Positions 5,171 to 39,848 of a DNA stretch of 64,000 nt are shown here, piece after piece. The stretch covers positions 1 through 64,000 of the IMG/VR virus record IMGVR_UViG_3300028454_001165. The stretch is one strand, 5' to 3'. Position numbers and translations under genes: made by a program. Below the pieces are notes generated by a model, which saw only the letters and a program-made list of their open reading frames with translations, was not told where the DNA came from and did not search any database. Every line of letters begins with the position of its first letter. The stretch's first letter is position 1. Source of the stretch: a virus (lineage: Duplodnaviria > Heunggongvirae > Uroviricota > Caudoviricetes).

Positions 5171-5278
5171 CAGCCCCTCTTCTCTTCTGCCTGATAAAAG
5201 TTTATCATGGGGAAAGCGCGTCTCAAACGGAGGCGGACTGCTTTCCCTTTATTTTTTTGCTCAGAAAGGAGACACAAC

Positions 5279-6025
5279 ATGAGCAAAGCAAAAAATCTGA
5301 TCCGGAAGATCCTTCCGACGGTATTGACTGTCATAGGAGCCGGAGCAACTGTCGCAGCAACTGTGCTCGCGGCAAAAGAGGGGCCAAAATTTGAAAGGGC
5401 TCTTAAAGAAAAGGAGATGACGGCAAAGGAAAAGATTGTCGCGGGAGTGAAGATCTTTGCACCGGCGGCCGGATGCGCTGCGGTTTCAATTGCCTGTACT
5501 GTCGGCGCGCATTGCATGGATCTTCACACGCAGGCCTCTATTACGGGCGCATATATCGCCGTTCAGGAGGCTTATAAGAAGTACCGGGCCAAAAATGAGG
5601 AACTGAACGGTCCGGAAGCAGACCAGAAAATCCTCACAGAGATCATGACGGAAGAAGTCCCGGAAGAGATCCGCGAAAGGATTGGCAACGAACCAATGCT
5701 GAAATTCCATGATTCCGTCAGCGGTCAGGACTTTTACAGTACAATGGCGAATGTGATTCAGGCAGAATACAACGTCAACAAGATGATAACTACACTTGGA
5801 GCGTGCAAGGAGAATGACTGGCTTGAGTTTCTGGATATTGCAAAAGTAGCTGGCGGGGATGATCGCGGATGGTCATCTGATATGCTTTGCGACTTATACA
5901 GCGAATGGTGGCTTGACTTTGCGCATTATCCGTCAGTTGATCTGGATAACGAAGAGACTGTCATCATTGTGCCGGACGTAGATCCGTCAGATGGCTATTT
6001 GAGTAATTACGGCCTCGACTGCTGA
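5279..6025 (+). CDS. membrane protein, paralog family A (249 aa)
   Basis: AAAGGAGA RBS. N-terminal TM segment, Lys/Glu linker, second hydrophobic segment (AGCAAVSIACTVGAH). Architecture shared with the 7130 and 8565 genes. Confidence 0.6.
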   Translation: MSKAKNLIRKILPTVLTVIGAGATVAATVLAAKEGPKFERALKEKEMTAKEKIVAGVKIFAPAAGCAAVSIACTVGAHCMDLHTQASITGAYIAVQEAYKKYRAKNEELNGPEADQKILTEIMTEEVPEEIRERIGNEPMLKFHDSVSGQDFYSTMANVIQAEYNVNKMITTLGACKENDWLEFLDIAKVAGGDDRGWSSDMLCDLYSEWWLDFAHYPSVDLDNEETVIIVPDVDPSDGYLSNYGLDC

Positions 6026-6039
6026 AAGGAGAAATAGGC

Positions 6040-6459
6040 ATGGCGACGGTTATCAGTCCTGAGATCACGGAAAAGAGTCCTTGGTGGATCCCGAGGCAGA
6101 GATACTATGAGCTCAAGCATTTCTGCCTTCAGTATCCGGACTGGAAGATTCAGCTTCGGATGATTGACGGAATCCAGCACCAAGCAGAACTTACAAATAT
6201 GCCGAAAAACAGAAACAGTCTATGCGACACGACCGGAGAGATGGCTATCAACAGAGCACGCCTCTCCAAACGGATCGATATGGTTGAACGAGCGGCAAGA
6301 GAAGCGGATGCAGACCTTTGCGACTACATACTCAAAGGAATCACAGAAGGAGTCAGCTATCATCTTTTGCAGTTCAAGCTTGGAATGCCGTATAATCGCA
6401 ATGACTATTATGAGACGTATCGTAAGTTCTTCTATATTCTGGATAAATACCGCGATTGA
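6040..6459 (+). CDS. hypothetical protein (139 aa)
   Basis: RBS AAAGGAGAAATAGGC. No confident domain. Possible small regulator. Confidence 0.5.
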   Translation: MATVISPEITEKSPWWIPRQRYYELKHFCLQYPDWKIQLRMIDGIQHQAELTNMPKNRNSLCDTTGEMAINRARLSKRIDMVERAAREADADLCDYILKGITEGVSYHLLQFKLGMPYNRNDYYETYRKFFYILDKYRD

Positions 6460-6620
6460 TCTCTGATAGTAAACCGACCCGTGTCATAATTCAGCAAAGC
6501 ATATACAAACCCATTCTGAATCGGTTTCCGGCCTTGCTGAAGATGCGGGTCGGATATTTGATTCTGCAATATTTGACGCGAAATAATCATGCGGTTTAAT
6601 GAAAGGGAGGTGTTTTACCT

Positions 6621-6854
6621 ATGAAAGAATGCATCAAAGTTATCACGGATGGAGTGAAGAAGAATGCGAAGTGGCTTCTTCTCGGAATGACGGCGCTCGC
6701 AAGCCTTGCGATCAGTCGTTTCGAGGAGAAAGAACAGCAGGAGTATATCGACCATGCTGTGGCAGAGCGAATGAATGCGCTCATGGCAGGAGACAACCCT
6801 GACGAGGAAGAAGAATCCGAAGAGGACGAAGAAGATTCCGAGGAAGAATCCTGA
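6621..6854 (+). CDS. small TM protein with poly-acidic C-terminal tail (77 aa)
   Basis: RBS AAAGGGAGG. TM helix LLLGMTALASLAI. Tail DNPDEEEESEEDEEDSEEES. Confidence 0.55.
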   Translation: MKECIKVITDGVKKNAKWLLLGMTALASLAISRFEEKEQQEYIDHAVAERMNALMAGDNPDEEEESEEDEEDSEEES

Positions 6855-6860
6855 ATCGCC

Positions 6861-6886
6861 GAGCCTTAACGGGCTCTTCCTTTTTT
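6861..6886 (+). terminator. terminator hairpin with TTAAC loop
   Basis: GAGCC-ttaacg-GGCTC followed by TTCCTTTTTT. Confidence 0.5.
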
Positions 6887-6911
6887 CATCCTCAGCCAAA
6901 GGAGGCAGCAT

Positions 6912-7103
6912 ATGAAACTTTACAGCTATGAAGGACCCATCATGGTCTTCGAGACATGTGTCGCCTCCAATTGGCGGGGCGTCACCTATGCGACATCGGA
7001 AGCAAGAGCCAGAAGCAATCTGACATATCAGGCGAAGAAGTTTCTTGGCAAGCTTCCGTCTTCAAGAGTTACGCTGCCCGGCAGGATCCAGCTTGTCGGG
7101 TAA
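6912..7103 (+). CDS. hypothetical protein (63 aa)
   Basis: RBS CAAAGGAGG 7 nt upstream. Confidence 0.5.
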   Translation: MKLYSYEGPIMVFETCVASNWRGVTYATSEARARSNLTYQAKKFLGKLPSSRVTLPGRIQLVG

Positions 7104-7129
7104 TAGATATTTGAAAGGAGAAACAGATC

Positions 7130-7945
7130 ATGAGTAAAACAGAAAGATTTGTTGAAGCAATGGCAAGAGGCCTGAAAAAGAGCTGGCCCAAGATTGCTGT
7201 TATCGCAGGAGGGGCTTTGCTGGCGATCGGCGGGTATAAAGCCGGGCTTGAGGTCCCTCGGTATGAGAAAGAGATCAGGGAAAAGGAGAAGGCATCCGAA
7301 GAGAAACTGAAAAAGACGGAAAAAGCGAAGATTGCCGCAAAGCATTTTGTCACTCCCGTGTGCATGGCAGCAGCAGGCGGAATGCTTCTCGTGGCCTCTA
7401 TCTGCGAGAACGACAGGCGTACAGCGATTGGCAGCACGGCGGTGGCAGCTCTTGAAGCGACATCTAAAACCTTTGCCGATTATAAGGAAGCGACGAAGGA
7501 GGTCGCCGGGGAAGAGACGGAAAAAGAAATCCGGAAGAAAGTCAAGGAAAAGCGTCTGGAGAATACGCCTTCCGTACAGGACCCACCGTTCGATAAGGTC
7601 CCTCCGAGTATGCAGGATATGTACTGGTGCTATGACCTGGCATTTGGGGGCGAGCCTTTTCTGACAACAAAGTACAAGCTGGAAAAAGCTGAAAATGAAA
7701 TCCAGAAACAGGTCCTGACCGGAGAAGAAGTCACGCTCAATGAAGCCTATTATATTCTCGGGATGAATCCGGTGAAAATGGGAGAGTCATACGGTTGGAA
7801 ATATGACCCGGAGCATCCGTCAAGCGGCACTGTGGATCTTGATATTTCTACAACGGAAAAGAACGGTGTGCCCGTGTTCTCGATTCTTCCCAATGCAAAT
7901 CTGATTGGCAAAGGCTTTTATGAAATTTCGAACTACGGTTTCTGA
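7130..7945 (+). CDS. membrane protein, paralog family A (271 aa)
   Basis: RBS GAAAGGAGAA. Same N-terminal TM / Lys-Glu linker / second hydrophobic segment as 5279 and 8565. C-terminal ESYGWKYDP motif. Confidence 0.6.
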   Translation: MSKTERFVEAMARGLKKSWPKIAVIAGGALLAIGGYKAGLEVPRYEKEIREKEKASEEKLKKTEKAKIAAKHFVTPVCMAAAGGMLLVASICENDRRTAIGSTAVAALEATSKTFADYKEATKEVAGEETEKEIRKKVKEKRLENTPSVQDPPFDKVPPSMQDMYWCYDLAFGGEPFLTTKYKLEKAENEIQKQVLTGEEVTLNEAYYILGMNPVKMGESYGWKYDPEHPSSGTVDLDISTTEKNGVPVFSILPNANLIGKGFYEISNYGF

Positions 7946-8564: not shown

Positions 8565-9491
8565 ATGAATCTCAAAAACATCGGAAAAGGCATTGGCGAC
8601 TTCGGGAAGAAGATCGCTTTTTCCGCACGGAAACATTCCCCGGAACTCTTAACCGGAGGCGCGATCGCATTAGGAATCGGAACAGTCATCGCAACGTGGT
8701 TCGCGGCAAGAAAAACGGACAAAGCTCTCGAAGAGCCGAAGAAGATCATCAAAACGGCAAAAGAGATGCCCGTCAGCGAGTCCTATACGGAGGCAGACCG
8801 TAAGCATGACATCTGGCTCGGATATAAAAAAGGCGCCGTGCAGATCATAAAACTGTACGGACCGGTCACGCTTATGGGCGCGTCATCGATTGCCTGCATA
8901 CTCGGTTCTCACAGAATCCTGTCCAATCGCAACGCCGGTCTGATCGCGGCGAACAGTATCCTGTCGAAGGAATTCAGCGATTACCGGGATAAGGTGATCG
9001 AGAAGTATGGACGCGAGGAGGACTACAACCTGCGCTTCGCGGACAAAATGGAGACTGCCGAAGCAACTCTCAAAGAAGAAAACGGCGAAGAGAAAACGGT
9101 CACGGTTGAGAAGGCGAAGGAAGGGTATCAGCTCGACACGTTTTCGCGGTGTTTCGACGATACAAATCCGTGCTGGAAAAGGGATACACAGTACAATGCG
9201 ACGTTCCTCAAACAAATCATGTCGCAGATGACGGATAAGCTTCGGGCGGAACGCGTGCTTTGTCTGAACGAGGTGTATGATGCTCTCGGATTCGACAAAA
9301 CACAAGCTGGCTTTGAGTACGGATGGATCTGCAAGCCCGGTCAGGAGATGGAGGCATACGTGGACTTCGGAATCTATGACATGAACAAAGAAAGTGTCCG
9401 GGAATTCATCTACGGTCACAACAACAGTATCTGGCTGGACTTCAATTGCTCGAAGATCATCTGGGCTGAGACTCCGTTCAGGAAGGTGTGA
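8565..9491 (+). CDS. membrane protein, paralog family A (308 aa)
   Basis: RBS GAAAGGAGC. TM / linker / TM architecture. C-terminal FEYGWICKPG motif. Confidence 0.6.
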   Translation: MNLKNIGKGIGDFGKKIAFSARKHSPELLTGGAIALGIGTVIATWFAARKTDKALEEPKKIIKTAKEMPVSESYTEADRKHDIWLGYKKGAVQIIKLYGPVTLMGASSIACILGSHRILSNRNAGLIAANSILSKEFSDYRDKVIEKYGREEDYNLRFADKMETAEATLKEENGEEKTVTVEKAKEGYQLDTFSRCFDDTNPCWKRDTQYNATFLKQIMSQMTDKLRAERVLCLNEVYDALGFDKTQAGFEYGWICKPGQEMEAYVDFGIYDMNKESVREFIYGHNNSIWLDFNCSKIIWAETPFRKV

Positions 9492-10691: not shown

Positions 10692-11012
10692 ATGAGTGAT
10701 GAAAAAATCGTCAAAGTGCTTGTGCGCATGGACGGAATTCCGATGGCTGCTCGACAGGACAATCGTGATATTCTGAAAATCATCCGGAAGCAGAAAAAGC
10801 AAATCAGAGGGCTGAAAGGCTTTGTCTTCGCACTGATCGTCGGAGGAGCGGTCCTTGCTGCCGAACTTGCAGAAAGAAAACGGAGCGAAAATTACCTGCA
10901 AAGCAAGATCGACAGTCTGAACGAAAAGGTGGACGATCTTCAGAACCGTATGCCGGAGAGCAACGTGGATACCCACGACGAAGCAAACATCGGAGGAGTC
11001 AGTGATGCGTAA
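10692..11012 (+). CDS. hypothetical protein with central TM helix and coiled coil (106 aa)
   Basis: GAAAGGAGAAG RBS. Stop overlaps the start of the replication gene (TAATGG). Confidence 0.5.
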   Translation: MSDEKIVKVLVRMDGIPMAARQDNRDILKIIRKQKKQIRGLKGFVFALIVGGAVLAAELAERKRSENYLQSKIDSLNEKVDDLQNRMPESNVDTHDEANIGGVSDA

Positions 11013-14000
11013 TGGCAGACTTCTTCAAAGTATTCACACGGTCGCCGAAGCGAGGACATGTTGAAATCTACCCGGAGTTTATTATCCGCAGCCCAAGCCA
11101 GGATCTGATGATCAAAGGCGGAGACTTCTATGCGGTCTGGGTCGAAGAACGCGGGCTTTGGTCCACAAGCGAACAGGATCTGATCAATCTTGTAGATCGG
11201 GAGCTTTATCAATATGCGGAAGAGTACGAGAAAAACTCGCCAGATGACATCGTGCATGTTCTGTGCATGAAGTATTCCTCCACCGGAACTACGGATCGAT
11301 GGCATAAGTATTGCCAGAAGCAGATGCGGGACTCCTATCATCCGCTTGACGAAAAGCTGGTCTTTTCCAATACGGAGGTCTCCAAGAGCGATTATGCTTC
11401 AAAGAGACTTCCGTATCCGCTGGAAGCCGGAGAGTGTCCTTCTTGGGATCAGTTCATGTCCGTTTTATATTCTCCCGAGGAGAGGCACAAAATCGAATGG
11501 GCGATCGGAGCCGTCGTGTCAGGCGATTCAAAGGACATTCAGAAGTTTATGGTGTTCTACGGTGATCCGGGGACCGGGAAATCTACCGTGTTAGACATCA
11601 TCATGCTTCTGTTTGCCGGGCACTACTGCACGTTCGACGCGAAGGCCCTCGGCAATCCGAACAGCACGTTTGCGCTCGAACCGTTCAAAGCCAATCCGCT
11701 TGTGGCGATCCAGCAGGACGGAGATCTCAGCCACATCGAGGATAATACCCGGCTGAACTCCATCGCCTCACACGATGAGATGACGGTGAACGAGAAGCAC
11801 AAGTCTTTATATTCCAACCGGTTCAACTGCTTCATGTTCATGGGCACGAACAAGCCCGTAAAGATCACGGACGCAAAATCCGGTATAATCCGGCGTCTGA
11901 TCGACGTATCGCCGACAGGAAACAAACTGCCGAGACGGGAATACGACAAACTCCGTTCTCAGGTCAAGTTTGAACTCGGAGCGATCGCAAAGCGGTGTCT
12001 GGACATCTATCTCGACGATCCGCATTTTTATGACAATTACATCCCGCTCAAGATGATGGGAGCCTCCAATGACTTCTACAATTATGTTTTGGATTCCTAT
12101 TCGGTATTCGAGCGGGAAGACGGGGTTTCGCAGAAAGCGGCGTGGGAGATGTACCGGACATACTGCGAAGAGGCGCGGGTTCCGTATCCGCTGTCGCTTC
12201 GGGTCTTCAAAGAAGAGCTGAAAAGCTACTTCAAGGAGTTCAAGGAGCGGATCAGCACGGAAGACGGCGGCCGCGTCCGAAACTGGTACGGCGGTTTTCG
12301 AAAAGAGAAATTTGTTCGGGAGGACTTTTCCGAAAAATCTCATGAGAAGACGGATCCTTCCTGCTGGTTCGTTCCGGCTCCGCGAACATCGCTCTTTGAT
12401 ATTTTGGGCGCGGACTATCCTGCCCAATACGCCAGCGAGGAAGGGATACCCAGACGGCGCTGGGTCAATGTTACGACAAAACTGAAAGATCTGGACACAT
12501 CACAGCTTCACTACGTCAAGGTTCCGATCAACCACATTGTGATCGATTTCGATATTCCGGATGAGCACGGCAGCAAAAGCCTCGAAAAGAATCTGGAAGC
12601 GGTATCGCGGTGGCCTCCTACCTACGGAGAGCTGTCGAAAAGCGGGCAGGGCATTCATCTTCATTATATTTATAAGGGAGATCCGAAACAGCTCAGCCAC
12701 GTTTACGACGACCGGATCGAGATCAAGGTGTTTGACGGAAATATGACGCTGAGACGGAAGCTTACGAAGTGCAACGATCTTCAGATAGCAGAGATCAGCT
12801 CAGGTTTACCGCTGAAAGGAGAAGACAAAATGGTAAACACCGAGACTGTGAAGAACGAGAAGGCGATCCGAACTCTGATCAAGAGGAATCTATGCAAGGA
12901 GTATCATCCCGGAACGAAGCCGAGCGTGGATTTCATCAAGAAGATTCTGGACGACGCCTATTCCAGCGGCGTGCGCTATGACGTGAGCGACATGTTCAAT
13001 CCCGTGCTGGCCTTTGCCACGAACAGCACGCATCACGCCGAATACTGCACGAAGCTGGTTTCCGAGATGCACTTCCGCTCTGAGGAGGAACCGACGCCGG
13101 GATTCCTCGAAAAAGTCGAAAATATGGGCAAAAATGATATTTTGATATTTTTCGACGTGGAGGTTTTCAAGAATCTTTTCGTGATCTGTTGGAAAGCTGC
13201 CGGGGCGGATCAACCGATCATGAAGATGATCAATCCGACGCCGAAGGAAGTGGAGGCTCTGACAAGGTGGAAGCTGATCGGATTCAACTGCCGTCAGTAC
13301 GACAACCATATTCTCTATGCGAGAATCATGGGGTACACGAACGAGCAGCTCTACAATCTGTCACAGTCCATTATCGGCTCGGAGAAAGGAAATCGGAACC
13401 GGGGCATGTTCGGCAACGCCTACAACTTATCCTATACGGATATTCTGGACTTCTCGTCTGAGAAAAAATCCCTGAAGAAATTTGAGATCGATCTCGGGAT
13501 TCACCATCAGGAGCTCGGTTTCGAATGGGATCAGCCTGTTTCGGAGGAGTTGTGGGAAAAGGTCGCCGAGTATTGCGCGAACGACGTGATCGCAACGGAA
13601 GCGGTCTGGAACGCACGGCAGGCGGATTTTATGGCGCGGCAGATTCAGGTGGAGCTTGTCAAGGCTTTGCACGGGATTACGGGCGTTTCGGTCAATGACA
13701 CGACAAACTCCCTGTCGGAGAAGATCATATTCGGCACGGAGAAAAATCCTCAGCGGCAGTTCAATTACCGCGATCTCTCAAAACCGGTTCCATGGACGGA
13801 ATATACGGAATACCGGAAGCGATTCGGAGACAGGTATACGTTCCATGTCTTCGACGACCACGGCCTTCCGACGTATGAAATCTACACCGGCGAGGGATGC
13901 GTCGTCCTGCCTGACGGATATTCCATTCTCCCATTCTTTCCCGGATATACGTTTGAGTTCGGTAAATCTGTGTATATGGGAGAGGAGATAGGAGAAGGAG

Positions 14001-15208
14001 GGCGTGTCTACGCGGAACCTGGCATTCATGAGAATGTCTGGGATGGGGACATCGCTTCCCAGCACCCGCACAGCGTGATCGCAGAATGCCTGTTCGGGCC
14101 GAAGTACACGGGAATCTTCGAGGAGATCGTGGAGGCGCGCGTCGCCATCAAGCACAAGGACTTTGAGAAAGCCGGGTCCATGCTGAACGGCGTGCTGAAG
14201 CCGTGGCTCACGGAAGAACATGCTGCCGGTCTTGCGCAGGCTCTGAAAATCGTCATCAATTCCATTTACGGGCTGACCTCAGCGGGATTTACAAACCGCT
14301 TCCGGGATGAGCGCAACGTAGATAACATTGTGGCGAAACGCGGAGCTCTGTTTATGACGCTGCTCAAATCCGAAGTGCAGAAGCGCGGATTCACGGTAGC
14401 GCACATCAAGACGGATTCCATCAAGATCGAGAACGCGACGGAGGAGATCCGCAACTTTGTTGTGAAATTCGGACGCGAATACGGATACGATTTCGAAACG
14501 GAGGCAGAATTCGATAAGTTCTGTCTTGTGAACGACGCCGTATACGTGGCGCGGTACAAGGAAGCCCTGAAAGACAAAAAGACCGGAAATGATATTTGGT
14601 GGACGGCCACCGGGACGCAGTTTCAGGTGCCCTATGTCTTCAAAACTTTGTTCTCCGGGGAAGAGCCGGTCTTTGAGGACTTCTGCGAAACAAAATCCGT
14701 TGCGAAGGGGGCAATCGTCATCGATATGAATGAGACCCTTCCGCAGCTCAGCGCGGCAGAGGAAAAGGAACTGATCGAGCTGCAAAAAGCGTACTCCGTA
14801 TCCGATCCTCCGCTTGAAACGGACATGGCTAAGCTCGTAAAGAAATTCAAACTATCCCCGGAAGAGATCGCATCGCGCTATGAAGACCTGAAAAAGCGGG
14901 AGGCAGAAGCGCACAATTATATTTTCGTCGGCAGGGTCGGACAGTTTTGTCCTATTGTGTCCGGCGGAGGAGGCGGGGTACTCTATCGGAATGCGGACGG
15001 CAAGTATTATGCTGTCAGCGGGACGAAAGGCTACCGCTGGCTGGAATCGGAGATGGTAAAGACTCTGGACAAAGCAGATCTCATTGACCGGAGCTTTTAT
15101 GATGCTCTTGCGAAAGATGCTATTCATACCATCAACGAAATCGGTCAAAAATGCGGCTGGGGCGGTTACAGGAAGCTTGTCGGGCATAATGCGGATGATG
15201 CTGACTAG
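11012..15208 (+). CDS. tripartite replication protein: SF3 (D5/P4-like) helicase + AEP primase + family-B DNA polymerase with 3'-5' exonuclease
   Basis: SF3 helicase Walker A FYGDPGTGKST and motif C NCFMFMGTNKP. AEP primase hhhDhD (IVIDFDIPDE) and sGxGxHhhY (SGQGIHLHYIY). DEDDy exonuclease motifs (ILIFFDVEVF; YCANDVIA). Family-B polymerase motif A (DGDIASQHPHS), motif B (KIVINSIYGLT) and motif C (HIKTDSIKIE). Confidence 0.85.
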   Translation: MADFFKVFTRSPKRGHVEIYPEFIIRSPSQDLMIKGGDFYAVWVEERGLWSTSEQDLINLVDRELYQYAEEYEKNSPDDIVHVLCMKYSSTGTTDRWHKYCQKQMRDSYHPLDEKLVFSNTEVSKSDYASKRLPYPLEAGECPSWDQFMSVLYSPEERHKIEWAIGAVVSGDSKDIQKFMVFYGDPGTGKSTVLDIIMLLFAGHYCTFDAKALGNPNSTFALEPFKANPLVAIQQDGDLSHIEDNTRLNSIASHDEMTVNEKHKSLYSNRFNCFMFMGTNKPVKITDAKSGIIRRLIDVSPTGNKLPRREYDKLRSQVKFELGAIAKRCLDIYLDDPHFYDNYIPLKMMGASNDFYNYVLDSYSVFEREDGVSQKAAWEMYRTYCEEARVPYPLSLRVFKEELKSYFKEFKERISTEDGGRVRNWYGGFRKEKFVREDFSEKSHEKTDPSCWFVPAPRTSLFDILGADYPAQYASEEGIPRRRWVNVTTKLKDLDTSQLHYVKVPINHIVIDFDIPDEHGSKSLEKNLEAVSRWPPTYGELSKSGQGIHLHYIYKGDPKQLSHVYDDRIEIKVFDGNMTLRRKLTKCNDLQIAEISSGLPLKGEDKMVNTETVKNEKAIRTLIKRNLCKEYHPGTKPSVDFIKKILDDAYSSGVRYDVSDMFNPVLAFATNSTHHAEYCTKLVSEMHFRSEEEPTPGFLEKVENMGKNDILIFFDVEVFKNLFVICWKAAGADQPIMKMINPTPKEVEALTRWKLIGFNCRQYDNHILYARIMGYTNEQLYNLSQSIIGSEKGNRNRGMFGNAYNLSYTDILDFSSEKKSLKKFEIDLGIHHQELGFEWDQPVSEELWEKVAEYCANDVIATEAVWNARQADFMARQIQVELVKALHGITGVSVNDTTNSLSEKIIFGTEKNPQRQFNYRDLSKPVPWTEYTEYRKRFGDRYTFHVFDDHGLPTYEIYTGEGCVVLPDGYSILPFFPGYTFEFGKSVYMGEEIGEGGRVYAEPGIHENVWDGDIASQHPHSVIAECLFGPKYTGIFEEIVEARVAIKHKDFEKAGSMLNGVLKPWLTEEHAAGLAQALKIVINSIYGLTSAGFTNRFRDERNVDNIVAKRGALFMTLLKSEVQKRGFTVAHIKTDSIKIENATEEIRNFVVKFGREYGYDFETEAEFDKFCLVNDAVYVARYKEALKDKKTGNDIWWTATGTQFQVPYVFKTLFSGEEPVFEDFCETKSVAKGAIVIDMNETLPQLSAAEEKELIELQKAYSVSDPPLETDMAKLVKKFKLSPEEIASRYEDLKKREAEAHNYIFVGRVGQFCPIVSGGGGGVLYRNADGKYYAVSGTKGYRWLESEMVKTLDKADLIDRSFYDALAKDAIHTINEIGQKCGWGGYRKLVGHNADDAD

Positions 15209-15280: not shown

Positions 15281-15808
15281 ATGAATGAAGTCAAGTACAC
15301 CATCCTCGGCGACAACAAGCTGAAAATCGAGAATCTTTCCAATCGTAACATTATCTACCGGAACTTCTCCGGTCGGACGAGCCAGTACAACAAAAACGGC
15401 GATCTGAAATTCACCATCGTGATCGGAGATCAGGACGCCGCGCAGATGCTTTCTTCCTATGGGTGGAACGTAAAGGTGAAGCCTCCGAGAAACGAAGGCG
15501 AGGAACCCTTCTGCACGCTGGATGTGAAGATCCGTCTGGATCTCGACTGGGCGAGACCGAAGATCAAGCAGTTCACCCGCGGCGGTTCCGTCTGGATCGA
15601 CGCGAGCAACATCAAGAATTTCGACGACGCAGAGTTCGAGACGGTCGATCTGGTTTTGAGACAGTACGCATGGTCGAACGGACGCGGCGAATCCGGTATT
15701 TCTGCGCAGCTTTCCGAGATGTACGCACGGATCGCGGAAGGCGTTCTCGAAGCCAAGTGGGCGGAAGAGGAAGGCCCCGGAGAGGATGCGCTTCCGTGGG
15801 AGAACTGA
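15281..15808 (+). CDS. hypothetical protein (175 aa)
   Basis: RBS AAAAGGAG. No recognisable domain. Confidence 0.55.
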   Translation: MNEVKYTILGDNKLKIENLSNRNIIYRNFSGRTSQYNKNGDLKFTIVIGDQDAAQMLSSYGWNVKVKPPRNEGEEPFCTLDVKIRLDLDWARPKIKQFTRGGSVWIDASNIKNFDDAEFETVDLVLRQYAWSNGRGESGISAQLSEMYARIAEGVLEAKWAEEEGPGEDALPWEN

Positions 15809-15847: not shown

Positions 15848-16204
15848 ACATTTATATTTTTGAGAGGTGCTTACGGATAAAAAGCGAATACGCTTGACGG
15901 GCTTTACCCTCGGATCAACAAGGACAAGAATATCGTGTACCTGCCAAATGGAATTTGGGCGGACTGGAGTCGATACGAAAAATGTCGAAGATGCGATCGA
16001 CTATTTCAATGACACCAAGTACGTTGAAAATCTTGGGATCGGCATCGGCATGATTTTAGGATCTGTATTGAGGGACTGCTCTCATCGTTCACAGATTCAA
16101 GAAGCACGGCAAGGAAAAGCATGAGGAATCCAAAGAGAGCGGGGAGGCGGCTGAATAAGCCCCTCTTCCTCTTTTTGGTATTGATTTTGAAAAGGAGAAA
16201 AGTT

Positions 16205-18280
16205 ATGGCATTTCACGATTTCAACAATAGATTAATTGAGAATTTCAAAAAGCGCATCGCTGAGAAAGAACTGTTCGAGGTTGATGCAGATAGGGATAGT
16301 TTGTGGTATTTATACATAAAAAGCTTTCCTGCTGCTGCAAATCCGATCTACCGTGTACGGACAAAGCATGACTGTGCCTGCTGCAGGCAGTTCATTCGGG
16401 AGGCCGGTCGAATCGTTTGGATTGATGATGACTTGATCATTCACAGTATTTTTGAGTTTGATGCACATGACGCGGATTATCAGATCGTTATTGATACACT
16501 GAATAACTATGTGTTGGGCCGCAACATCATAGGCAAATACCTGTATGAGAGAAAGAGGATCGGCACACCCGTATCCAGAGAATGCCTCGATGACGGAACA
16601 ATAATATCCTATGAACACTTTTCGATAGATCTGCCTGATTCGGCCGTATTCTGCAATACATCCAGTACAACTATTGACACAGAAAGAGGACGCTTTAGAG
16701 ATCGTAGAAATGTATTTAAGCGATCTCTTGATGAGATCTCAGTTGATGCGCTCAATACTGTTTTGGAACTGATTCAAACAAATGCTCTGTATAAGGGTGG
16801 AGAATGGGGGAAGCTTATCAAACAATTCCTTTACTATAAGAATCAGTACGATACATTGGGATATGATCGAAGCAAGCAAGAAGCTTACTGCTGGGCATAC
16901 GCATCAAAAGTAGGAGATGTACTCGGAAAAATCAGAAATCATAGTATTGGAAAGCTTCTCGTTGATATTTCAGAAGGAGTCGAACTGGATGAGGCAGTTA
17001 GAAGATACGAAGTTGTCGTAGCTCCAATGAACTATAAACGTCCGAAAGCCATTTATACCAAGCGAATGCTGGAAGAAGCGCAGAAAACCGTTACGGAACT
17101 CGGTTATATGGAGTCTCTTCCGAGACGCTTTGCTACATTAGATGACATTACAGTCAATGATATTCTGTTTTTCAATAAGGATACGGCAAGAAGGATTTCC
17201 GGCAATGTGTTCGATGAAATGAAAACGGAAATAGCAACCGATCCTAAGAGATTTAGTCGAATACAAGAAGTCACCATGAATCAGTTCATTCATGACATCT
17301 TACCTGATGCGAAAGAAGTTTATGCTCTTGCAGAAAACCGTTTGGCTCCGAATATGGTATCGCTGATCGCACCTGTTAACAAGGAGTCAAAAAGCATGTT
17401 CAAGTGGGGGAATGGTTTTTCGTGGGCTTATTCTGGAAACATCACAGACAGCAACATTCGCGAAAACGTAAAACTGGCCGGGGGAAAAGTTGAAGGCGCT
17501 CTTCGATTCAGCATCCAGTGGAATGATATTCATTCTGACTATAACGATCTGGATGCCCATTGTGAAATTGCGTTCTCTGATCGAGGCTATGGTCATATCT
17601 ATTATCGCTCAAAGGTTGACCGCATCACCGGTGGAAGTCTTGACGTTGACATTATTAACCCCATACCCGGAAAACCTGCCGTTGAGAACATCATCTTTCC
17701 AAGCAAAGAGATTCTTGAAAACCGAGTGAAAGAAATGATACTGTATGTTTACTGCTTTACCTATCGTGGCGGAGAGAACGGGTTCAGAGCTGAAATTGAG
17801 TATGATGGACAAATTCACAACTATGATTTCAGAAAACCGCTTCATCAAGGCGAACATATTCCTGTGGCAAGACTTAAGTATAAGACTAATGGGGATTTTG
17901 CCTTTGAGGAGTTTCTGCCTTCAAGCACGATAAATCAGGAGATCTGGGGGATTAAAGCCCAGACATTTGTACCTGTTACGGTCATTATGACATCTCCAAA
18001 CTGGTGGAACGGAGAAGAAGGCATCGGTCATAAGCATTGGTTTTTCATGCTGAAAGATTGCGTAAATCCAGAAAAACCAAATGGCTTTTACAATGAGTTT
18101 CTGAAGCAGGAGCTTGTAGAACACAAAAGGGTATTTGAAGCGTTAGGTGCCAAGATGGCCATTCAAGACGTAAACGATCAATTGTCAGGCTTTGGGTTCA
18201 GCGACACGAAACGTAACAACGTTATTGTGAAAGTCAGAAGTATCAACAACACCGAAAGAGTCTACAAAATTAAATTCTAA
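16205..18280 (+). CDS. large hypothetical protein (691 aa) in a low-GC island
   Basis: AAAAGGAGAAAAG RBS. Roughly 42% GC against 55-62% in the flanks. No recognisable catalytic motif. Beta-rich C-terminal half. Confidence 0.65.
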   Translation: MAFHDFNNRLIENFKKRIAEKELFEVDADRDSLWYLYIKSFPAAANPIYRVRTKHDCACCRQFIREAGRIVWIDDDLIIHSIFEFDAHDADYQIVIDTLNNYVLGRNIIGKYLYERKRIGTPVSRECLDDGTIISYEHFSIDLPDSAVFCNTSSTTIDTERGRFRDRRNVFKRSLDEISVDALNTVLELIQTNALYKGGEWGKLIKQFLYYKNQYDTLGYDRSKQEAYCWAYASKVGDVLGKIRNHSIGKLLVDISEGVELDEAVRRYEVVVAPMNYKRPKAIYTKRMLEEAQKTVTELGYMESLPRRFATLDDITVNDILFFNKDTARRISGNVFDEMKTEIATDPKRFSRIQEVTMNQFIHDILPDAKEVYALAENRLAPNMVSLIAPVNKESKSMFKWGNGFSWAYSGNITDSNIRENVKLAGGKVEGALRFSIQWNDIHSDYNDLDAHCEIAFSDRGYGHIYYRSKVDRITGGSLDVDIINPIPGKPAVENIIFPSKEILENRVKEMILYVYCFTYRGGENGFRAEIEYDGQIHNYDFRKPLHQGEHIPVARLKYKTNGDFAFEEFLPSSTINQEIWGIKAQTFVPVTVIMTSPNWWNGEEGIGHKHWFFMLKDCVNPEKPNGFYNEFLKQELVEHKRVFEALGAKMAIQDVNDQLSGFGFSDTKRNNVIVKVRSINNTERVYKIKF

Positions 18281-18688: not shown

Positions 18689-18716
18689 GCGGAGAATAGT
18701 TATCACTGTTCTCCGC
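18689..18716 (+). terminator. perfect 8-bp hairpin terminator
   Basis: GCGGAGAA-tagttatcactg-TTCTCCGC followed by TTATTATAAT. Confidence 0.5.
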
Positions 18717-18747
18717 TTATTATAATGCGAGAATTGGAGTTGCATGG

Positions 18748-19173
18748 ATGAAAAACAAAGAGAAAGAGAAAAGCTATTCGGAAATAATCGCGCTGTACTG
18801 CAATCTTGTCTCGGAAGCACAGGCCCGGTATAGAACTGTCAAAGAAGATCTGGAGCGGCTTGAGATGCTGACGCAGGATTATCTGCACGCGCTTGAACTC
18901 GGGGAACTGAGCTATCATGAGCGGGCAAAGATCGCCACGCAGCTTGCAGAATGCCGGAAGGAAAGACGAATCGCCAAGGATCTGCTGGAAGTGCTGGAAC
19001 CGTTTATCCAGTTTGCAGACGAGAAAGAAAGCAAGGCGTATGTCAACAAGCTCCGGCAGGTACTCGGCTCGGTGCGGACTGCGGAGAAAAAGCACAGCAA
19101 TCGGATCTACGTTCCGAGAGTGCTGGCGGATGCGGAAGGACTGTACGGCGCGAAGGAAAAGGAGAAAAAGTGA
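18748..19173 (+). CDS. coiled-coil protein (141 aa)
   Basis: Heptad-rich Glu/Lys/Leu sequence. Immediately upstream of the micro-TM and SPFH genes. Confidence 0.5.
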   Translation: MKNKEKEKSYSEIIALYCNLVSEAQARYRTVKEDLERLEMLTQDYLHALELGELSYHERAKIATQLAECRKERRIAKDLLEVLEPFIQFADEKESKAYVNKLRQVLGSVRTAEKKHSNRIYVPRVLADAEGLYGAKEKEKK

Positions 19174-19174
19174 G

Positions 19175-19279
19175 ATGCCGATCAGAATGATCATCATCCT
19201 TGTTGTCGTGATCGTAATCTTGGCGATCAGCTTCAAGGATCCGATTTACGACTGGTACAAAAACAATTTCAAAAAGTAA
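19175..19279 (+). CDS. 34-aa single-pass membrane peptide
   Basis: AAGGAGAAAAAG RBS. Sequence MPIRMIIILVVVIVILAISFKDPIYDWYKNNFKK. Confidence 0.4.
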   Translation: MPIRMIIILVVVIVILAISFKDPIYDWYKNNFKK

Positions 19280-19304
19280 AAAAAAAAATAAAAGGAGAAA
19301 CACA

Positions 19305-20420
19305 ATGTCTGACAACATGAAGAAATTCGTTACCGCGCTTCTGATCCTCGCCGTTTACTTGATTGGCGGGATCATCGTTTATGCATCCACTCACGAGACC
19401 ATCCCTGCCGGATATGTCGGTTACATATATGACCGGACAGCAAATGCAAAAGACGACGTTATCGAAGGGACGTCCGTTCTGAACAGTGAAAAGACGGGCC
19501 GTATCCGAATAAACCCTATCACGCAGGACGTACTGAAATACCCGACGACGATCATTTCCAAAAACTGGACGCGGCTCGAAGAGGGCGACAATAAGGTTGA
19601 TATGTCCATGTCCATCGCTTCCAGCGAAGGCAAAAACATCGACGCCGACATTTATATTTCCATCCGCCCCACCGACATCGGTAAAATTATCAAGTCGTTC
19701 GGCACGAAATCCTTCGATTCGATCATTGACAATGATATTTACGGGCTGGCAAAAGGCAAGCTGAACGGCGTCACACAGGAATATTCGGTGTATGACGTAC
19801 AGGCCAACCGAACGGAAATTCAGCAGAAAGCGTTCGACGTGCTGAAAACCGTTCTGAACGACATATACGGTGTGGAACTGATCCGGTTCGAACTCGGTAC
19901 GCTGATCCTTCCGGATGATATTCAGCTTAAAATCGACCAGAAGACGGAAGCGCAGAACGAGGTTGAATTAGCCAGACTGGAAAGAGAAAAACAGGACGAG
20001 ATCAACGCCCAAATCGTAGACGCGCAGAAAGCCCAGAGCGAGAAAGAGCTTCTTCAGAGACAGACGGAAGCCGATGCCGCCGCTTATGAGGTTGCAAAAG
20101 AAGCACAGGCACAGATCGACGCGCAGAAGGCAAAGGCGGAGGTGGCGCAGATCAAGCGTGACGAAGCCGAAGCAGAACAGAAATCCAAGGTCGAAATTGC
20201 CCGTATGCAGGTTGAAGAAGCGGAGCTGAAAAAGAAGGCCGAGCTTGAAAACCAGCAGACGCTGACGGACAGTTACTTCCGCGACCGGGAGCTTGATATT
20301 CAGGAGGCGGCGGTCAAAGCGATCAACGGATCGGTGAAAACCATCATCACTTCCGGGGACGGCGAAGGCTACGGCGGACTGTTCGGGATCAAGGAGATTC
20401 TGGCATCGGAAAACGAATAA
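19305..20420 (+). CDS. SPFH/Band-7 (prohibitin / HflK-C / stomatin-like) membrane protein (371 aa)
   Basis: N-terminal TM helix. SPFH-like core. Long Ala/Glu/Gln/Lys coiled coil (ELARLEREKQDEINAQ...). AAAGGAGAAACAC RBS. Confidence 0.7.
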   Translation: MSDNMKKFVTALLILAVYLIGGIIVYASTHETIPAGYVGYIYDRTANAKDDVIEGTSVLNSEKTGRIRINPITQDVLKYPTTIISKNWTRLEEGDNKVDMSMSIASSEGKNIDADIYISIRPTDIGKIIKSFGTKSFDSIIDNDIYGLAKGKLNGVTQEYSVYDVQANRTEIQQKAFDVLKTVLNDIYGVELIRFELGTLILPDDIQLKIDQKTEAQNEVELARLEREKQDEINAQIVDAQKAQSEKELLQRQTEADAAAYEVAKEAQAQIDAQKAKAEVAQIKRDEAEAEQKSKVEIARMQVEEAELKKKAELENQQTLTDSYFRDRELDIQEAAVKAINGSVKTIITSGDGEGYGGLFGIKEILASENE

Positions 20421-20777: not shown

Positions 20778-21020
20778 ATGGCAGGTTGGAAACAGCAGGC
20801 CCGGCAGTATGGAAGGGTCAATGCAAAATCGTTATCCGTTCTTGCACAAGATCAGAAGCCGCCGGAGAAGAAAGTAATAGACGCATACAGGACGAAAGAG
20901 CAGGCGGACGTGTGTCTTGGCTGCTCAAAAACGGTCTGCACCGGTAGTCCGGAATGCTTTCGAAAACGGAGAAAGGAGCTGACATGCGCAAAATCGGAAG
21001 AATCATCTGCAACGCGATAG
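20778..21020 (+). CDS. hypothetical Cys-rich protein (80 aa)
   Basis: Stop/start overlap with upstream gene (TGATATGG). CLGC...CTGSPEC cysteines. Confidence 0.4.
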   Translation: MAGWKQQARQYGRVNAKSLSVLAQDQKPPEKKVIDAYRTKEQADVCLGCSKTVCTGSPECFRKRRKELTCAKSEESSATR

Positions 21021-21124
21021 AGGCGCTTCTTGTTCTCTTCTCCTTTGTTGCAATTTTCGGAGCGCTGACATTCGCGGCGGCATGGATCACATATACCGCC
21101 GTTTCATGGCTTATGAGGGTATGA
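20984..21124 (+). CDS. putative 46-aa membrane peptide (overlapping frame)
   Basis: AAAGGAG RBS 5 nt upstream of ATG 20984. Hydrophobic LLVLFSFVAIFGALTFAAAWITY. Confidence 0.3.
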   Translation: MRKIGRIICNAIEALLVLFSFVAIFGALTFAAAWITYTAVSWLMRV

Positions 21125-21129
21125 TATGC

Positions 21130-22359
21130 ATGGACATACAGAAAGCAATGTCCGCTGCTGACGGGCTCGACGCATACCAGATCGATGCGATAAATCAAAT
21201 GAAGAACGGCTGTATTCTCTGCGGCGGCGTCGGTTCCGGGAAATCCCGGACTGCTCTTGGATATTACTATAAAGACTTTGAGCAGATCCGGGAGAGGAGC
21301 GGACACGAAATGCCGCTTATCATTATCACGACCGCGAAGAAGCGCGATACGGGGGAATGGCAGGAGGAATGCAGACTGTTCGGGATTCCTTTCACCGGTG
21401 ATCTGATCGTTGACTCGTGGAATAATATCGGAAAATACGTCGGCGAGATCGGCGCGTTTTTTATATTCGATGAGCAGCGGGTCGTCGGCAGCGGGGCATG
21501 GGTCAAATCTTTTCTGAAAATCGTCCGGGCCAACCGATGGATCCTTCTGTCGGCTACGCCCGGCGATACATGGAAGGACTATATACCGGTCTTCATCGCC
21601 AATGGGTTTTACAAGAATCGGACTGAATTTACCCGTGAGCACATCGTCTACTCCCAGTTCACAAATTTTCCGAAGATCGATCGATACCTTGAGACGGCAA
21701 AGCTCATGCGGCTGCGGGATTCCATTCTCGTTCGGATGGACTATGTCAAGCACACGAAGGACAGACATGAGGACATCTGGTGCCAGTATGATATTCCGGG
21801 GTACCGGTCGATCATGCGGAATATGTGGAACCCGTGGACGGACGAACCGATCGATACGGCGGGAGCGCTATGCTATGCGCTGAGAAGAATCTGCTATTCG
21901 GACAAATCGCGTCTGGAGGCGCTTCAAAAGCTGCTTGGCATTCATCCGAAAGCAATTATATTTTACAATTATGATTTTGAACTTGATCTTCTGCGGGTAT
22001 TCTGTACGGAACACGGGATCGTCTGGGGAGAATGCAATGGCCACCGGCACGACGAGGTTCCCATGGGTGACCGATGGGTCTACCTTGTGAACTTCCAGAG
22101 CGGAGCCGAAGGATGGAACTGTATTGCCACGGACACATTGATATTCTATTCCGAGAACTATTCTTACCGGATCATGCAGCAGGCGGCCGGACGGATTGAC
22201 AGACGGAACACGCCGTTTGATATTTTGTACTACTATCACCTGAAGTCCCATTCGTCAATCGAATTGACGATCATGCGGACGCTGAGGGACAAGAAGGATT
22301 TCAACGAAGGCGGGTTCTACCGAAAAATCGCGGGATCGCGGGAAAAACATGGTTCTTAA
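21130..22359 (+). CDS. SF2 (DEAD/DEAH-like) helicase (409 aa; alternative start 21121)
   Basis: Walker A CGGVGSGKS. DEAD-like IFDEQR. Motif III LLSATPG. Motif VI QQAAGRIDR. Confidence 0.7.
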   Translation: MDIQKAMSAADGLDAYQIDAINQMKNGCILCGGVGSGKSRTALGYYYKDFEQIRERSGHEMPLIIITTAKKRDTGEWQEECRLFGIPFTGDLIVDSWNNIGKYVGEIGAFFIFDEQRVVGSGAWVKSFLKIVRANRWILLSATPGDTWKDYIPVFIANGFYKNRTEFTREHIVYSQFTNFPKIDRYLETAKLMRLRDSILVRMDYVKHTKDRHEDIWCQYDIPGYRSIMRNMWNPWTDEPIDTAGALCYALRRICYSDKSRLEALQKLLGIHPKAIIFYNYDFELDLLRVFCTEHGIVWGECNGHRHDEVPMGDRWVYLVNFQSGAEGWNCIATDTLIFYSENYSYRIMQQAAGRIDRRNTPFDILYYYHLKSHSSIELTIMRTLRDKKDFNEGGFYRKIAGSREKHGS

Positions 22360-26246: not shown

Positions 26247-26615
26247 ATGACTGCTGAAAATTGCGTCGAGGAAAAAGTCGACCTCCGGGCAAAGCTCGAA
26301 CAGGTCACGGAGGAATGCGGAGAACTGGCGGCGGCCTGCATGAAGCTTGTGCGGGCTCTCGGCAACGGAAATCCCTGCAATGTAACCGAAGAAGAGGCCA
26401 TCGCCAAGGTACTTGAAGAATGGTCCGACGTGGAGGTTGCCGGTATCTACCTTCTGCAGATGCTTGAGGGCATGTGCGACTATGATATTTACGACCGGAT
26501 CGATGAGATCGGGGCCGAGAAAACGGCAAGATGGCAGAAACGGGTAAAGGAGGACGGAAACAATGAAGTACTTCCTGGCGATGCTTGTTGTAACGGTGAT
26601 GCTTGCGATCTTTAA
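26247..26615 (+). CDS. MazG-like nucleotide pyrophosphohydrolase (122 aa)
   Basis: EExGE motif (VTEECGELAAAC). Conserved acidic and hydrophobic pattern (EEWSDVEVAGIYLL). Confidence 0.55.
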   Translation: MTAENCVEEKVDLRAKLEQVTEECGELAAACMKLVRALGNGNPCNVTEEEAIAKVLEEWSDVEVAGIYLLQMLEGMCDYDIYDRIDEIGAEKTARWQKRVKEDGNNEVLPGDACCNGDACDL

Positions 26616-26721
26616 GCTGGCCGGATGGACCGACGTCTCGTGGCTGTGGGTACTCTCTCCGTTCTGGCTGCCGATGATCGAAGGTGTTTTCGTCCGTATC
26701 GCGGAATGGATGGACGATTGA
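26563..26721 (+). CDS. 52-aa membrane peptide
   Basis: AAAGGAGG RBS 9 nt upstream. Sequence MKYFLAMLVVTVMLAIFKLAGW... Stop supplied by the TTGATATTT junction. Confidence 0.4.
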   Translation: MKYFLAMLVVTVMLAIFKLAGWTDVSWLWVLSPFWLPMIEGVFVRIAEWMDD

Positions 26722-33192: not shown

Positions 33193-33402
33193 ATGAAGAA
33201 ACTGATTTCCGATATTTTGACGGCGGCGGTCATTCTGCTGGCGATCGGCGGTACCCTTGCCGTCTATGGACTGTTTACCATAGGCGTCGCGGGCGTTACG
33301 CTGTACGCTGTCGGAGTGGGGCTGATCATCGTGATCGGAGCGATTTCCGGTGTGGCGCATGAACTTGAGGAGATTGGCAAAAACGAGGAGGAGGGACTCT
33401 GA
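33193..33402 (+). CDS. double-TM small membrane protein (69 aa)
   Basis: CAAGGAGATATGAGAC RBS. Two hydrophobic helices. Confidence 0.5.
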   Translation: MKKLISDILTAAVILLAIGGTLAVYGLFTIGVAGVTLYAVGVGLIIVIGAISGVAHELEEIGKNEEEGL

Positions 33403-39199: not shown

Positions 39200-39765
39200 G
39201 CTTCCAGTTCAACCGGCACGCGGAGATCGAGGGCAAGCACGCTTTTCTCTCGGCGTCGAAGTATCATTGGATCCGGTACGATGAAGCGAAGATGGCCGAC
39301 GTATTCCGCAATTTCTTCGCGGCGGAGCAGGGAACGCGGATGCACGATTTCGCGTCCCATTGCATTCGGATGGGACAGAAGCTTCCGCGGACGAAGCAGA
39401 CGCTCAACATGTTCGTCAACGACGCGGTGGAGTTCGGGATGTCCTCGGAGGTGGTGCTGTATTACAGCCGCAACTGTTTCGGGACGACGGACGCGATCGG
39501 TTTCCGGAATGGGGTGCTCCGCATTCACGACTACAAGAGCGGTGTGATCCCGGCGCATTTCGAGCAGCTCTTCGTCTACGCGGCTCTGTTTTGTCTGGAA
39601 TACGACGTTGCGCCGGAGGATATTCAGATCGAGCTGCGGATCTATCAGTCGGGTGAGATTCAGAAATGCAGGCCGGAGCCGGAGGTGATCCGGGAGGTCA
39701 TGCGGAAAGCGGTGGATTTTGACATGCTGATCGAATCCATCAAAGAGGAAGAGCGGGCCAATTGA
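39196..39765 (+). CDS. putative PD-(D/E)xK-family nuclease (189 aa)
   Basis: ATGA coupling to the VRR-NUC gene. TDAIGF...LRIHDYKSG resembles a D...(D/E)xK core. Low certainty. Confidence 0.35.
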   Translation: MSFQFNRHAEIEGKHAFLSASKYHWIRYDEAKMADVFRNFFAAEQGTRMHDFASHCIRMGQKLPRTKQTLNMFVNDAVEFGMSSEVVLYYSRNCFGTTDAIGFRNGVLRIHDYKSGVIPAHFEQLFVYAALFCLEYDVAPEDIQIELRIYQSGEIQKCRPEPEVIREVMRKAVDFDMLIESIKEEERAN

Positions 39766-39848
39766 TATTTGAAATAGGGGGTGGGATCGCCGGATGTGAC
39801 CCCCTCTTCTTTTTCATTGATATTTGCAAAGAAAGGCAGATTACAGCC

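Follow-up and report, generated by a model that had tools for sequence, protein, structure and literature searches.

Is an SPFH protein encoded by a phage a copy of the bacterial HflK/HflC proteins, which would act on the FtsH protease and on lysogeny, or is it part of a device of the phage's own? This question is raised by a locus in a 64,000-nucleotide (nt) stretch of phage DNA (IMG/VR record IMGVR_UViG_3300028454_001165, positions 1 to 64,000; the window in the following), in which the gene of an SPFH protein of 371 amino acids (aa) is preceded by two smaller genes. An earlier note, made from the sequence alone, had described the SPFH product as HflK/C-like and had pointed to a small membrane partner of its own. 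As judged from the comparison of related loci, the strongest result of our analysis is that this partner, a peptide of 34 aa, is a conserved companion of the SPFH gene. The three open reading frames (ORFs) listed by the earlier note were recovered on the + strand at the same positions:

18748-19173, + strand: gene of a charged, probably helical protein of 141 aa (phrog_2717, E=2e-16)
19175-19279, + strand: gene of a single-pass membrane peptide of 34 aa, MPIRMIIILVVVIVILAISFKDPIYDWYKNNFKK (ORF and translation)
19305-20420, + strand: gene of a membrane-anchored SPFH (Band 7) protein of 371 aa (Pfam Band_7, PHROG_200, fold of the AlphaFold2 (AF2) model)

As proposed in the earlier note, the 371-aa protein does belong to the SPFH superfamily, and it is also a member of the PHROG_200 family. 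Residues 33-229 match Pfam PF01145 Band_7 (CL0433) with E=1.3e-10 and 42.1 bits, compared to a gathering cutoff of 23.6, and residues 4-260 match the PHROG_200 profile ('lipoprotein') with E=2.5e-26 and 93.7 bits. The gene is preceded by AGGAG at 19293-19297, 7 nt upstream of its start, and its product consists of a transmembrane (TM) helix at about residues 8-27, the SPFH domain at about 33-229, a long helix at 204-333 and a conserved C-terminal segment, SVKTIITSGDGEGY. The N-terminal anchor, the SPFH core and the long helix, all three of which had been read from the sequence before, are present in the AF2 model as an N-terminal helix (3-29), an alpha/beta core and a single continuous helix (204-333); the predicted local distance difference test (pLDDT) score has a mean of 70 and lies between 77 and 91 over residues 101-280. 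A Foldseek search of the PDB with this model retrieved solved SPFH assemblies with a probability of 1.00 and E values of 1e-8 to 1e-5, namely human prohibitin (8rrh), stomatin (9z7u), HflK/C (7wi3, 9paw), erlin (9vvj), flotillin (9l3g), MVP and QmcA, and the isolated stomatin SPFH domain (4fvg) could be superimposed with a TM-score (target) of 0.80 and a root mean square deviation of 2.4 Å. The SPFH subfamilies were about equally similar to the 371-aa protein and none of them stands out. Viral Band-7 proteins were also matched by the fold search, to which the BFVD database adds those of giant viruses. Searches of the PDB by sequence, using either the single protein or a profile of 16 sequences, gave nothing useful, the top profile matches being a chance match to USP7 (E~0.3) and QmcA (E=0.93).

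The 34-aa ORF begins 1 nt past the stop codon of the 141-aa gene and has an AGGAG at 19160-19164, 10 nt upstream of its start. The peptide is composed of an MPIR N-terminus, a TM helix of about 17 residues and an aromatic and basic juxtamembrane tail, FKDPIYDWYKNNFKK. For comparison, 25 viral loci, 8 genome loci and several contigs were retrieved by exact protein look-up. Each of the 37 close loci encodes a small peptide upstream of its SPFH gene; in 36 of them the distance from the end of the peptide gene to the SPFH start is -35 to +31 nt, and the two genes overlap in 21, while in one locus (L004) a single unrelated gene is inserted between them. The start MP(I/V/L/W)(R/K) is found in 35 of the 37 and, in addition, in the more distant locus L038, the exceptions being LPIR with a TTG start (L010) and a divergent peptide (L028). 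The arrangement also extends to less similar SPFH genes, since the peptide is located upstream in L038 (SPFH identity 55%; MPVKAIILMIVIICIVAFFYRNE...) as well as in L040, L041 and L042 (31-32%), where that of L042 is an uncalled ORF.

The genes flanking the pair are entirely different between the close loci. When the ORFs located up to 5 kb away were compared by all-versus-all BLAST for 21 non-redundant loci, no third gene family recurred in more than 5 of the loci, and none kept a fixed position. These comparisons show that the peptide and SPFH genes are inherited together as a unit across phages with otherwise unrelated flanks.

Similar pairs were found at much larger distances. A relative of about 30% identity (P0137) used as a query retrieved SPFH genes in 583 phage records, in which they are annotated as 'lipoprotein', 'band 7 protein' or 'prohibitin family protein'. 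These records include Staphylococcus Kayvirus, Bacillus and Enterococcus Herelleviridae, Burkholderia, Klebsiella and Erwinia phages, a Lak megaphage, a crAss-like phage and haloarchaeal viruses. In 11 of the 12 distant lineages inspected a small hydrophobic ORF abuts the SPFH gene:

ISP (MbpV), 102 aa; B4, 44 aa; PBS1, 50 aa; BcepF1, 66 aa; RpAliso, 79 aa; Lak-A2, 86 aa: upstream partners
PhiSH19 (Salmonella phage, JN126049, L046), 1432-1650, - strand: upstream partner of 72 aa with two TM helices, unannotated, 4-nt overlap with the SPFH gene
crAss cr128_1 (L054), 987-1190, + strand: upstream partner of 67 aa with two TM helices, unannotated, overlapping the SPFH start
phiEF24C, 49 aa; HJTV-3, 44 aa: downstream partners

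The upstream ORF of FADO has 24 aa only, which is too short for certainty, and in KB57 a two-TM protein is encoded one gene away from the SPFH gene. The peptide of B4 is, among these distant partners, the one whose design is most like that of the 34-aa peptide. The unannotated ORFs of PhiSH19 and crAss cr128_1 are probably genes that were missed in the public records. Pairs of a small TM protein and an SPFH gene, which by position and hydrophobicity appear to be functionally analogous, are thus shown in phages of Gram-positive bacteria, of Gram-negative bacteria and of archaea. Phage SPFH genes are common (583 records), and the new observation is that the SPFH gene nearly always lies beside a tiny, often unannotated membrane-protein gene. 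The 'own small membrane partner' of the earlier note therefore holds for all 37 close loci, for the relatives of 31-55% identity and for 11 to 12 of the 12 distant lineages.

An ORF of 34 aa is very short, it falls into no curated family, and ORFs of this kind are left uncalled in some records, so that one might regard it as a chance or non-functional ORF whose position next to the SPFH gene is meaningless. We consider this to be almost inconceivable. All 26 distinct DNA variants of the peptide gene are open, the N-terminal motif is conserved, and the proportion of non-synonymous differences (pN) is lower than that of synonymous differences (pS) in every informative pair. In addition, the ORF has a ribosome-binding site, and the same adjacency test gave a positive result for only 7 of 162 other genes of the inspected phages (4.3%), compared to the 37 of 37 close loci and the relatives of 31-55% identity. 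Finally, the more two SPFH proteins differ, the more their peptides tend to do so as well (Mantel r=0.70 for the pairwise identities, a value that was reached by 0 of 5000 permutations), with the peptide diverging about twice as fast (mean identity 38% versus 69%). On these sequence criteria the 34-aa ORF is a real gene.

No curated family and no significant PHROG were found for the peptide, and NCBIfam and PADLOC contain no family for the SPFH protein, the peptide or their neighbours. Matches of the peptide to Pfam Flp1_like (23.7, 18.7 and 17.0 bits, compared to a cutoff of 33.5) were rejected as a likeness in hydrophobic composition and not a sign of membership. Among the positives of the control test are small TM ORFs of 52-69 aa at 20954-21124, 26563-26721 and 33193-33402 (+ strand), which are located directly upstream of larger genes including that of the helicase.

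The close relatives of the SPFH protein form a tight clade, made up of phages and prophages of gut Clostridia that have not been cultured. A word-indexed search yielded 440 SPFH homologues at E<=1e-3 among 8000 candidates scored, and the 120 listed are 65-100% identical and come nearly all from gut or rumen metagenomes. Among 1.84 billion cluster representatives, phmmer found only 8 at E<1e-30, with just one full-length second representative (55% identity), the next relatives being about 30% identical. In 185,579 species genomes 8 loci were found, all in metagenome-assembled genomes (MAGs) and mostly in Clostridia, and tblastn of the SPFH protein against 50,697 phage records gave one weak match. 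Two of the genome contigs (L030 and L035) carry the Clostridia-type module yet are binned in Bacteroidales and Cryptobacteroides MAGs; they are probably phage contigs in the wrong bin.

Within the coiled coil, at about residues 278-295, an insertion or deletion of 18 residues (five helical turns) separates the clade of at least 80% identity from most of the 65-70% clade. In the latter group P0087 (64-66%) retains the insert and another member has a shorter deletion. The walls of an SPFH cage, should one be formed, would be of different height in the two clades.

The window itself is phage DNA which is coding almost wholly on the + strand. The phage origin assumed by the earlier note is supported by polymerase-primase, helicase, terminase, portal, protease and major tail protein genes. 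The features that are needed in the following are:

1-1506, + strand: complete class II tRNA synthetase of the Lys/Asp/Asn type (Pfam tRNA-synt_2, E=1e-97, plus an anticodon oligonucleotide-binding (OB) fold)
11012-15208, + strand: primase-polymerase fusion of 1398 aa (phrog_4210 DNA polymerase; primase-family matches over residues 120-450; Pfam DUF5906 in the identical JGI contig)
15281-15808: single-stranded DNA-binding protein (Phage_ssDNA_bind), upstream of the SPFH module
21082-22359: helicase, downstream of the SPFH module
47690-49438: terminase large subunit
51060-53405: portal protein
53424-55424: head protease
56880-57695: major tail protein

The module is thus placed among replication genes, with the terminase gene following about 27 kb downstream. 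The tRNA synthetase gene is probably a host gene that marks the left edge of a prophage; between it and the first phage-like genes no ORF of the size of an integrase was found. A protein identical to the 371-aa SPFH protein is also encoded on a 543-kb Ruminococcaceae MAG contig. Because of this contig and of the tRNA synthetase gene at the edge, the element is most likely a prophage of a gut Ruminococcaceae bacterium.

On which side of the membrane would the SPFH domain be located? In 12 sequences the N-terminal flank of the anchor has a charge of 0 to +4 (positive in 11 of the 12) and the 15 residues C-terminal to it have a charge of -2 to +1. According to the positive-inside rule, which gives a prediction only, the SPFH protein is expected to have an N-in/C-out topology, which would place the SPFH domain outside the cytoplasm, as in HflC. 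A cytoplasm-facing orientation of the flotillin/stomatin type was not found, the charge distribution predicting (and only predicting) the opposite. Homologues from phages of Gram-negative bacteria have a lipoprotein-type signal sequence in place of the helix, such as LLSGC in PhiSH19 and similar cysteine motifs in BcepF1 and KB57, and a lipoprotein anchor likewise places the SPFH domain outside the cytoplasm. In the 371-aa protein a lipobox or lipoprotein signal is absent and the N-terminus, MSDNMKKFVTALLILAVYLIGGIIVYAS, contains no cysteine. The window clade differs from PHROG_200 in being TM-anchored and not lipid-anchored, with a coiled coil of about 130 residues. For the peptide, the flanking charges suggest an N-out/C-in orientation in most variants.

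The predicted outward topology is the same as that of HflC. The earlier note had suggested that the phage-borne copy could manipulate host FtsH. In this reading the SPFH protein would be an FtsH modulator: a cage on the outer face would enclose the FtsH of the host, the peptide would be an adaptor or an inhibitor like CIII or SpoVM, and the stabilisation of FtsH substrates would bias the lysis-lysogeny decision or the takeover of the host. FtsH is regulated by HflK/C, and small amphipathic inhibitors of it are known in lambda (CIII) and in B. subtilis (SpoVM). The proteobacterial HflK/HflC-FtsH complex does share the SPFH fold, the single N-terminal anchor, a bulk that is predicted to be outside the cytoplasm, a long coiled coil and, at the C-terminus, a conserved segment such as is used for closing the cage. 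Moreover, the fold of the 371-aa protein matches the cryo-electron microscopy chains of FtsH-HflK/C (7wi3, 9cz2, 9paw) at E~1e-6, the element adjoins a host gene and is therefore probably temperate, and the relatives of about 30% identity give HflK/HflC matches, which are weak and far below threshold (22-39 bits, compared to cutoffs of 134-159).

The 371-aa protein itself, however, gave no match at E<=0.1 to the NCBIfam equivalog models of HflK and HflC (TIGR01933, TIGR01932, NF008259), and its identity to these proteins in structural alignments is about 13-16%. The K/C heteropair has no equivalent either, as only one SPFH gene is present: tblastn with the 371-aa protein and with a distant relative found only 19305-20420 in the 64-kb window, and no second SPFH gene was found in the related loci examined. 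By these sequence tests the 371-aa protein is not an HflK or HflC orthologue. What remains of the description 'HflK/C-like' is membership in the same superfamily and the predicted N-in/C-out topology, while the lack of a match to TIGR01932 or TIGR01933, the lack of a K/C pair and the equal likeness to prohibitin, stomatin, erlin and flotillin speak against it; indeed, the likeness to prohibitin and stomatin is as good or better. An FtsH-related gene is linked to the module in none of the loci compared. Homologues of the module are common in obligately lytic phages, including strictly lytic Herelleviridae and Ackermannviridae, and occur in haloarchaeal viruses as well; most archaea are not known to have FtsH.

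The FtsH proposal is weakened by the failed HflK/HflC tests together with the occurrence in obligately lytic phages and in archaeal viruses, and we regard it as unlikely. A link of phage SPFH proteins to lysogeny has been considered possible before, by authors who themselves note that their presence in lytic phages contradicts it (PMC8540360). Because the modules occur in strictly lytic phages and haloarchaeal viruses and because the Kayvirus version (see below) is an abundant early operon, a role specific to lysogeny is not the general one. A role in FtsH control or lysogeny is possible, but it is unsupported as a general function, and control of lysogeny is a less likely outcome than protection of the membrane.

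A second comparison is offered by NfeD-SPFH operons. These two-gene operons, of which E. coli QmcA-YbbJ, Pyrococcus PH1510-PH1511 and B. subtilis YuaF-FloT and YqeZ-FloA are examples, combine the gene of an SPFH scaffold with that of a small membrane protein. QmcA and flotillins face the cytoplasm, whereas the window protein is predicted to face outward. The window module shares with these operons an adjacent and co-oriented gene of a small membrane partner; QmcA is among the fold matches of the 371-aa protein, and in PDB 8z5g the partner has been solved together with the SPFH cage. The window partner, however, has 34 aa and is too small for an NfeD OB-fold domain, and in the small partners of the clade (34-59 aa) no NfeD or other significant Pfam, NCBIfam or PHROG match was found.

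A third comparison is offered by the MbpV-MbpS pair of Staphylococcus Kayvirus (phages K, ISP, vB_SauM-515A1), in which a small gene with an N-terminal TM helix is located immediately upstream of, and overlapping, the gene of an N-terminally anchored SPFH protein. Both the Kayvirus and the window SPFH protein were retrieved with P0137, at about 29-32% identity. In contrast to the 34-aa MPIR peptide, MbpV has 102 aa with a long charged tail and no detectable sequence similarity, MbpS has 263 aa and a much shorter coiled coil than the window protein, and the Kayvirus pair is flanked by lysis genes instead of replication genes. In ISP the mbpV-mbpS pair is annotated with its own promoter and terminator. 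RNA sequencing of vB_SauM-515A1 has shown that mbpV-mbpS is transcribed as transcription unit TU15 from a single early sigma-70 promoter (p70) and that TU15 is among the five most abundantly transcribed units, with similar normalised counts at 5, 15 and 30 min (PMC7698491). Given the position among replication genes in the window and the early and abundant expression of the Kayvirus counterpart, the module probably acts from the start of infection.

The same Kayvirus pair bears on a possible device that sets the time of lysis, in which a holin-like or pore-forming peptide would be corralled by the SPFH cage, as an antiholin or raft organiser, until a trigger occurs, or in which the cage would aid the export of lytic enzymes. 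MbpV 'resembles holins', mbpV-mbpS is located between lysK and tgl, and it has been speculated that MbpS might help the secretion of Tgl (PMC7150955). The 34-aa peptide with its N-terminal TM helix and charged C-terminal tail likewise has a holin-like or type-I-toxin-like design, and L038 has an Amidase_2 gene three genes downstream. However, TU15 is expressed early and constantly, in contrast to holA and lysK, which require a late promoter (PMC7698491). In the window and in most of the other loci the neighbours of the module are genes of replication or nucleotide metabolism instead of a lysis cassette, and no such cassette was identified among the ORFs scanned in the window. Furthermore, no holin family was matched by the peptide (Pfam Holin_SPP1, E=0.48). 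A function in the timing of lysis thus appears improbable to us.

Prophages often carry defence genes as morons, and since the element is integrated, an anti-phage defence or abortive-infection cassette from which the lysogen would benefit has also to be considered; the earlier note had mentioned that SPFH proteins occur in some defence operons. This hint found no support, as none of the PADLOC-DB v2 defence models was matched at a meaningful level by the seven proteins around the locus, with no match for the SPFH protein and the peptide and noise (E>0.01) for the 141-aa protein. The module is co-directional within the replication operon: a scan for promoter and terminator consensus sequences gave the same counts as shuffled sequence and no convincing promoter of the module's own. 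In addition, the same module occurs in virulent phages, where the defence of a lysogen is irrelevant. Such a cassette is therefore highly unlikely.

Taken as a whole, we read the locus, with a slight preference over all other readings combined, as a two-gene accessory module of the phage that consists of an SPFH cage scaffold and a membrane peptide and acts early. Copies of the SPFH protein would probably assemble into a closed cage, a homo-oligomer located on the outside of the host's cytoplasmic membrane, the TM helix of the peptide would probably co-assemble with, or inside, the ring of SPFH anchors, and the cage would fence off a patch of the membrane, probably from the start of infection on. 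The assembly of the cage and the placement of the peptide are suggested, as probable, by the solved SPFH assemblies (HflK/C, QmcA-YbbJ, stomatin, prohibitin, erlin and flotillin). As an outcome, the membrane of the infected cell might be protected, either by excluding the entry of DNA from superinfecting phages or by preventing premature permeabilisation, but this part of the reading is a tentative one.

Several points weigh against this reading. The oligomerisation of the cage and the contact between peptide and SPFH protein are transferred from other systems, and the AF2 model is of moderate quality only (mean pLDDT 70), with a poor SPFH1 part and C-terminus. The orientation of the peptide is ambiguous, as the charge of its C-terminal flank is +2 to +5 in most variants and 0 or negative in several. 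The distant partners, i.e. the two-TM proteins and the 102-aa MbpV, have only position and hydrophobicity in common with the 34-aa peptide, so that homology is not demonstrable. Exclusion or protection as an outcome is backed circumstantially, by the early timing, the outward orientation and a gene annotated 'superinfection exclusion' beside the PhiSH19 module. Phage SPFH genes have appeared in genome papers since at least 2006, and a literature search for an experimental role of any phage SPFH protein found annotations and speculation only (PMC13239085, PMC8540360, PMC7150955), among the latter a possible role in adsorption or DNA entry (PMC13239085). For the outcome of the module we would nevertheless place insulation of the membrane, as a possibility, before the modulation of FtsH, which is unlikely, followed by the timing of lysis with a caged holin-like peptide and, far behind in probability, by defence of the lysogen.

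The 141-aa gene, which the earlier note had counted with the locus as a flanking coiled-coil protein, has the same orientation as the peptide gene and abuts its 5' side, but it does not qualify as part of the module. A homologue directly upstream of the peptide was found only in L038, i.e. in 1 of the 20 other non-redundant loci (21 including the window). Its family, phrog_2717, is of unknown function; homologues occur in 24 phage records, mainly of Bacillus, in which tblastn with the window SPFH protein found no close SPFH homologue. Together with a DUF8224 protein it was rejected as a module member because no third gene family recurs in more than 5 of the 21 loci or at a fixed position. The gene of the DUF8224 protein (phrog_1735; 719 aa, 16121-18280, + strand) is 66-72% identical at the nucleotide level to genes from Herelleviridae phages of Bacillus. 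In L042, too, a DUF8224 gene (5538-7379) is located two genes downstream of the 31%-identical SPFH gene, which may be a coincidence or a loose association. Between the 124-aa and the 141-aa genes a hairpin was read from the sequence:

18689-18726, + strand: GC-rich hairpin of 8 bp (GCGGAGAA / TTCTCCGC, 12-nt loop), followed by TTATTATAAT

It was not reported by the consensus scan and the region is not enriched for such sites; it may be a terminator or promoter, or the boundary of a transcription unit upstream of the 141-aa gene.

The window has further features besides the module. Three consecutive paralogous DUF6353 proteins (5207-6025, 7130-7945 and 8565-9491, + strand) are encoded near the left end of the element, and one of the few minus-strand ORFs, located just upstream of the terminase gene (46672-47538, 288 aa), contains an S-layer homology (SLH) domain. 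A large protein resembles RNA polymerases:

39762-42668, + strand: RNA-polymerase-like protein of 968 aa, matched end to end by phrog_4291 ('RNA-dependent RNA polymerase')

It has short matches to helix-turn-helix families near both ends, the C-terminal one being the strongest, and may be a phage-encoded non-canonical RNA polymerase.

The cassette in the window is a further member, from an uncultured gut clade, of a known kind. The reading in which a phage HflK/C controls FtsH and lysogeny is attractive, yet it is not supported by the sequence. Because peptide and SPFH protein are inherited together while the surrounding genes are exchanged, the unit for experiments is two genes and not one, and the Kayvirus mbpV-mbpS pair and those of the Bacillus phages B4 or PBS1 are tractable systems for this purpose. 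It is conceivable, though improbable, that the peptide is a pore-forming or holin-like effector which is held inactive on the membrane by the phage SPFH cage, and that the viral pair is a general device for timed or conditional permeabilisation or for sealing the cell against competing phages; if true, this would be a new functional class for SPFH cages. The function of the pair, if established, would reveal a viral use of SPFH membrane cages.

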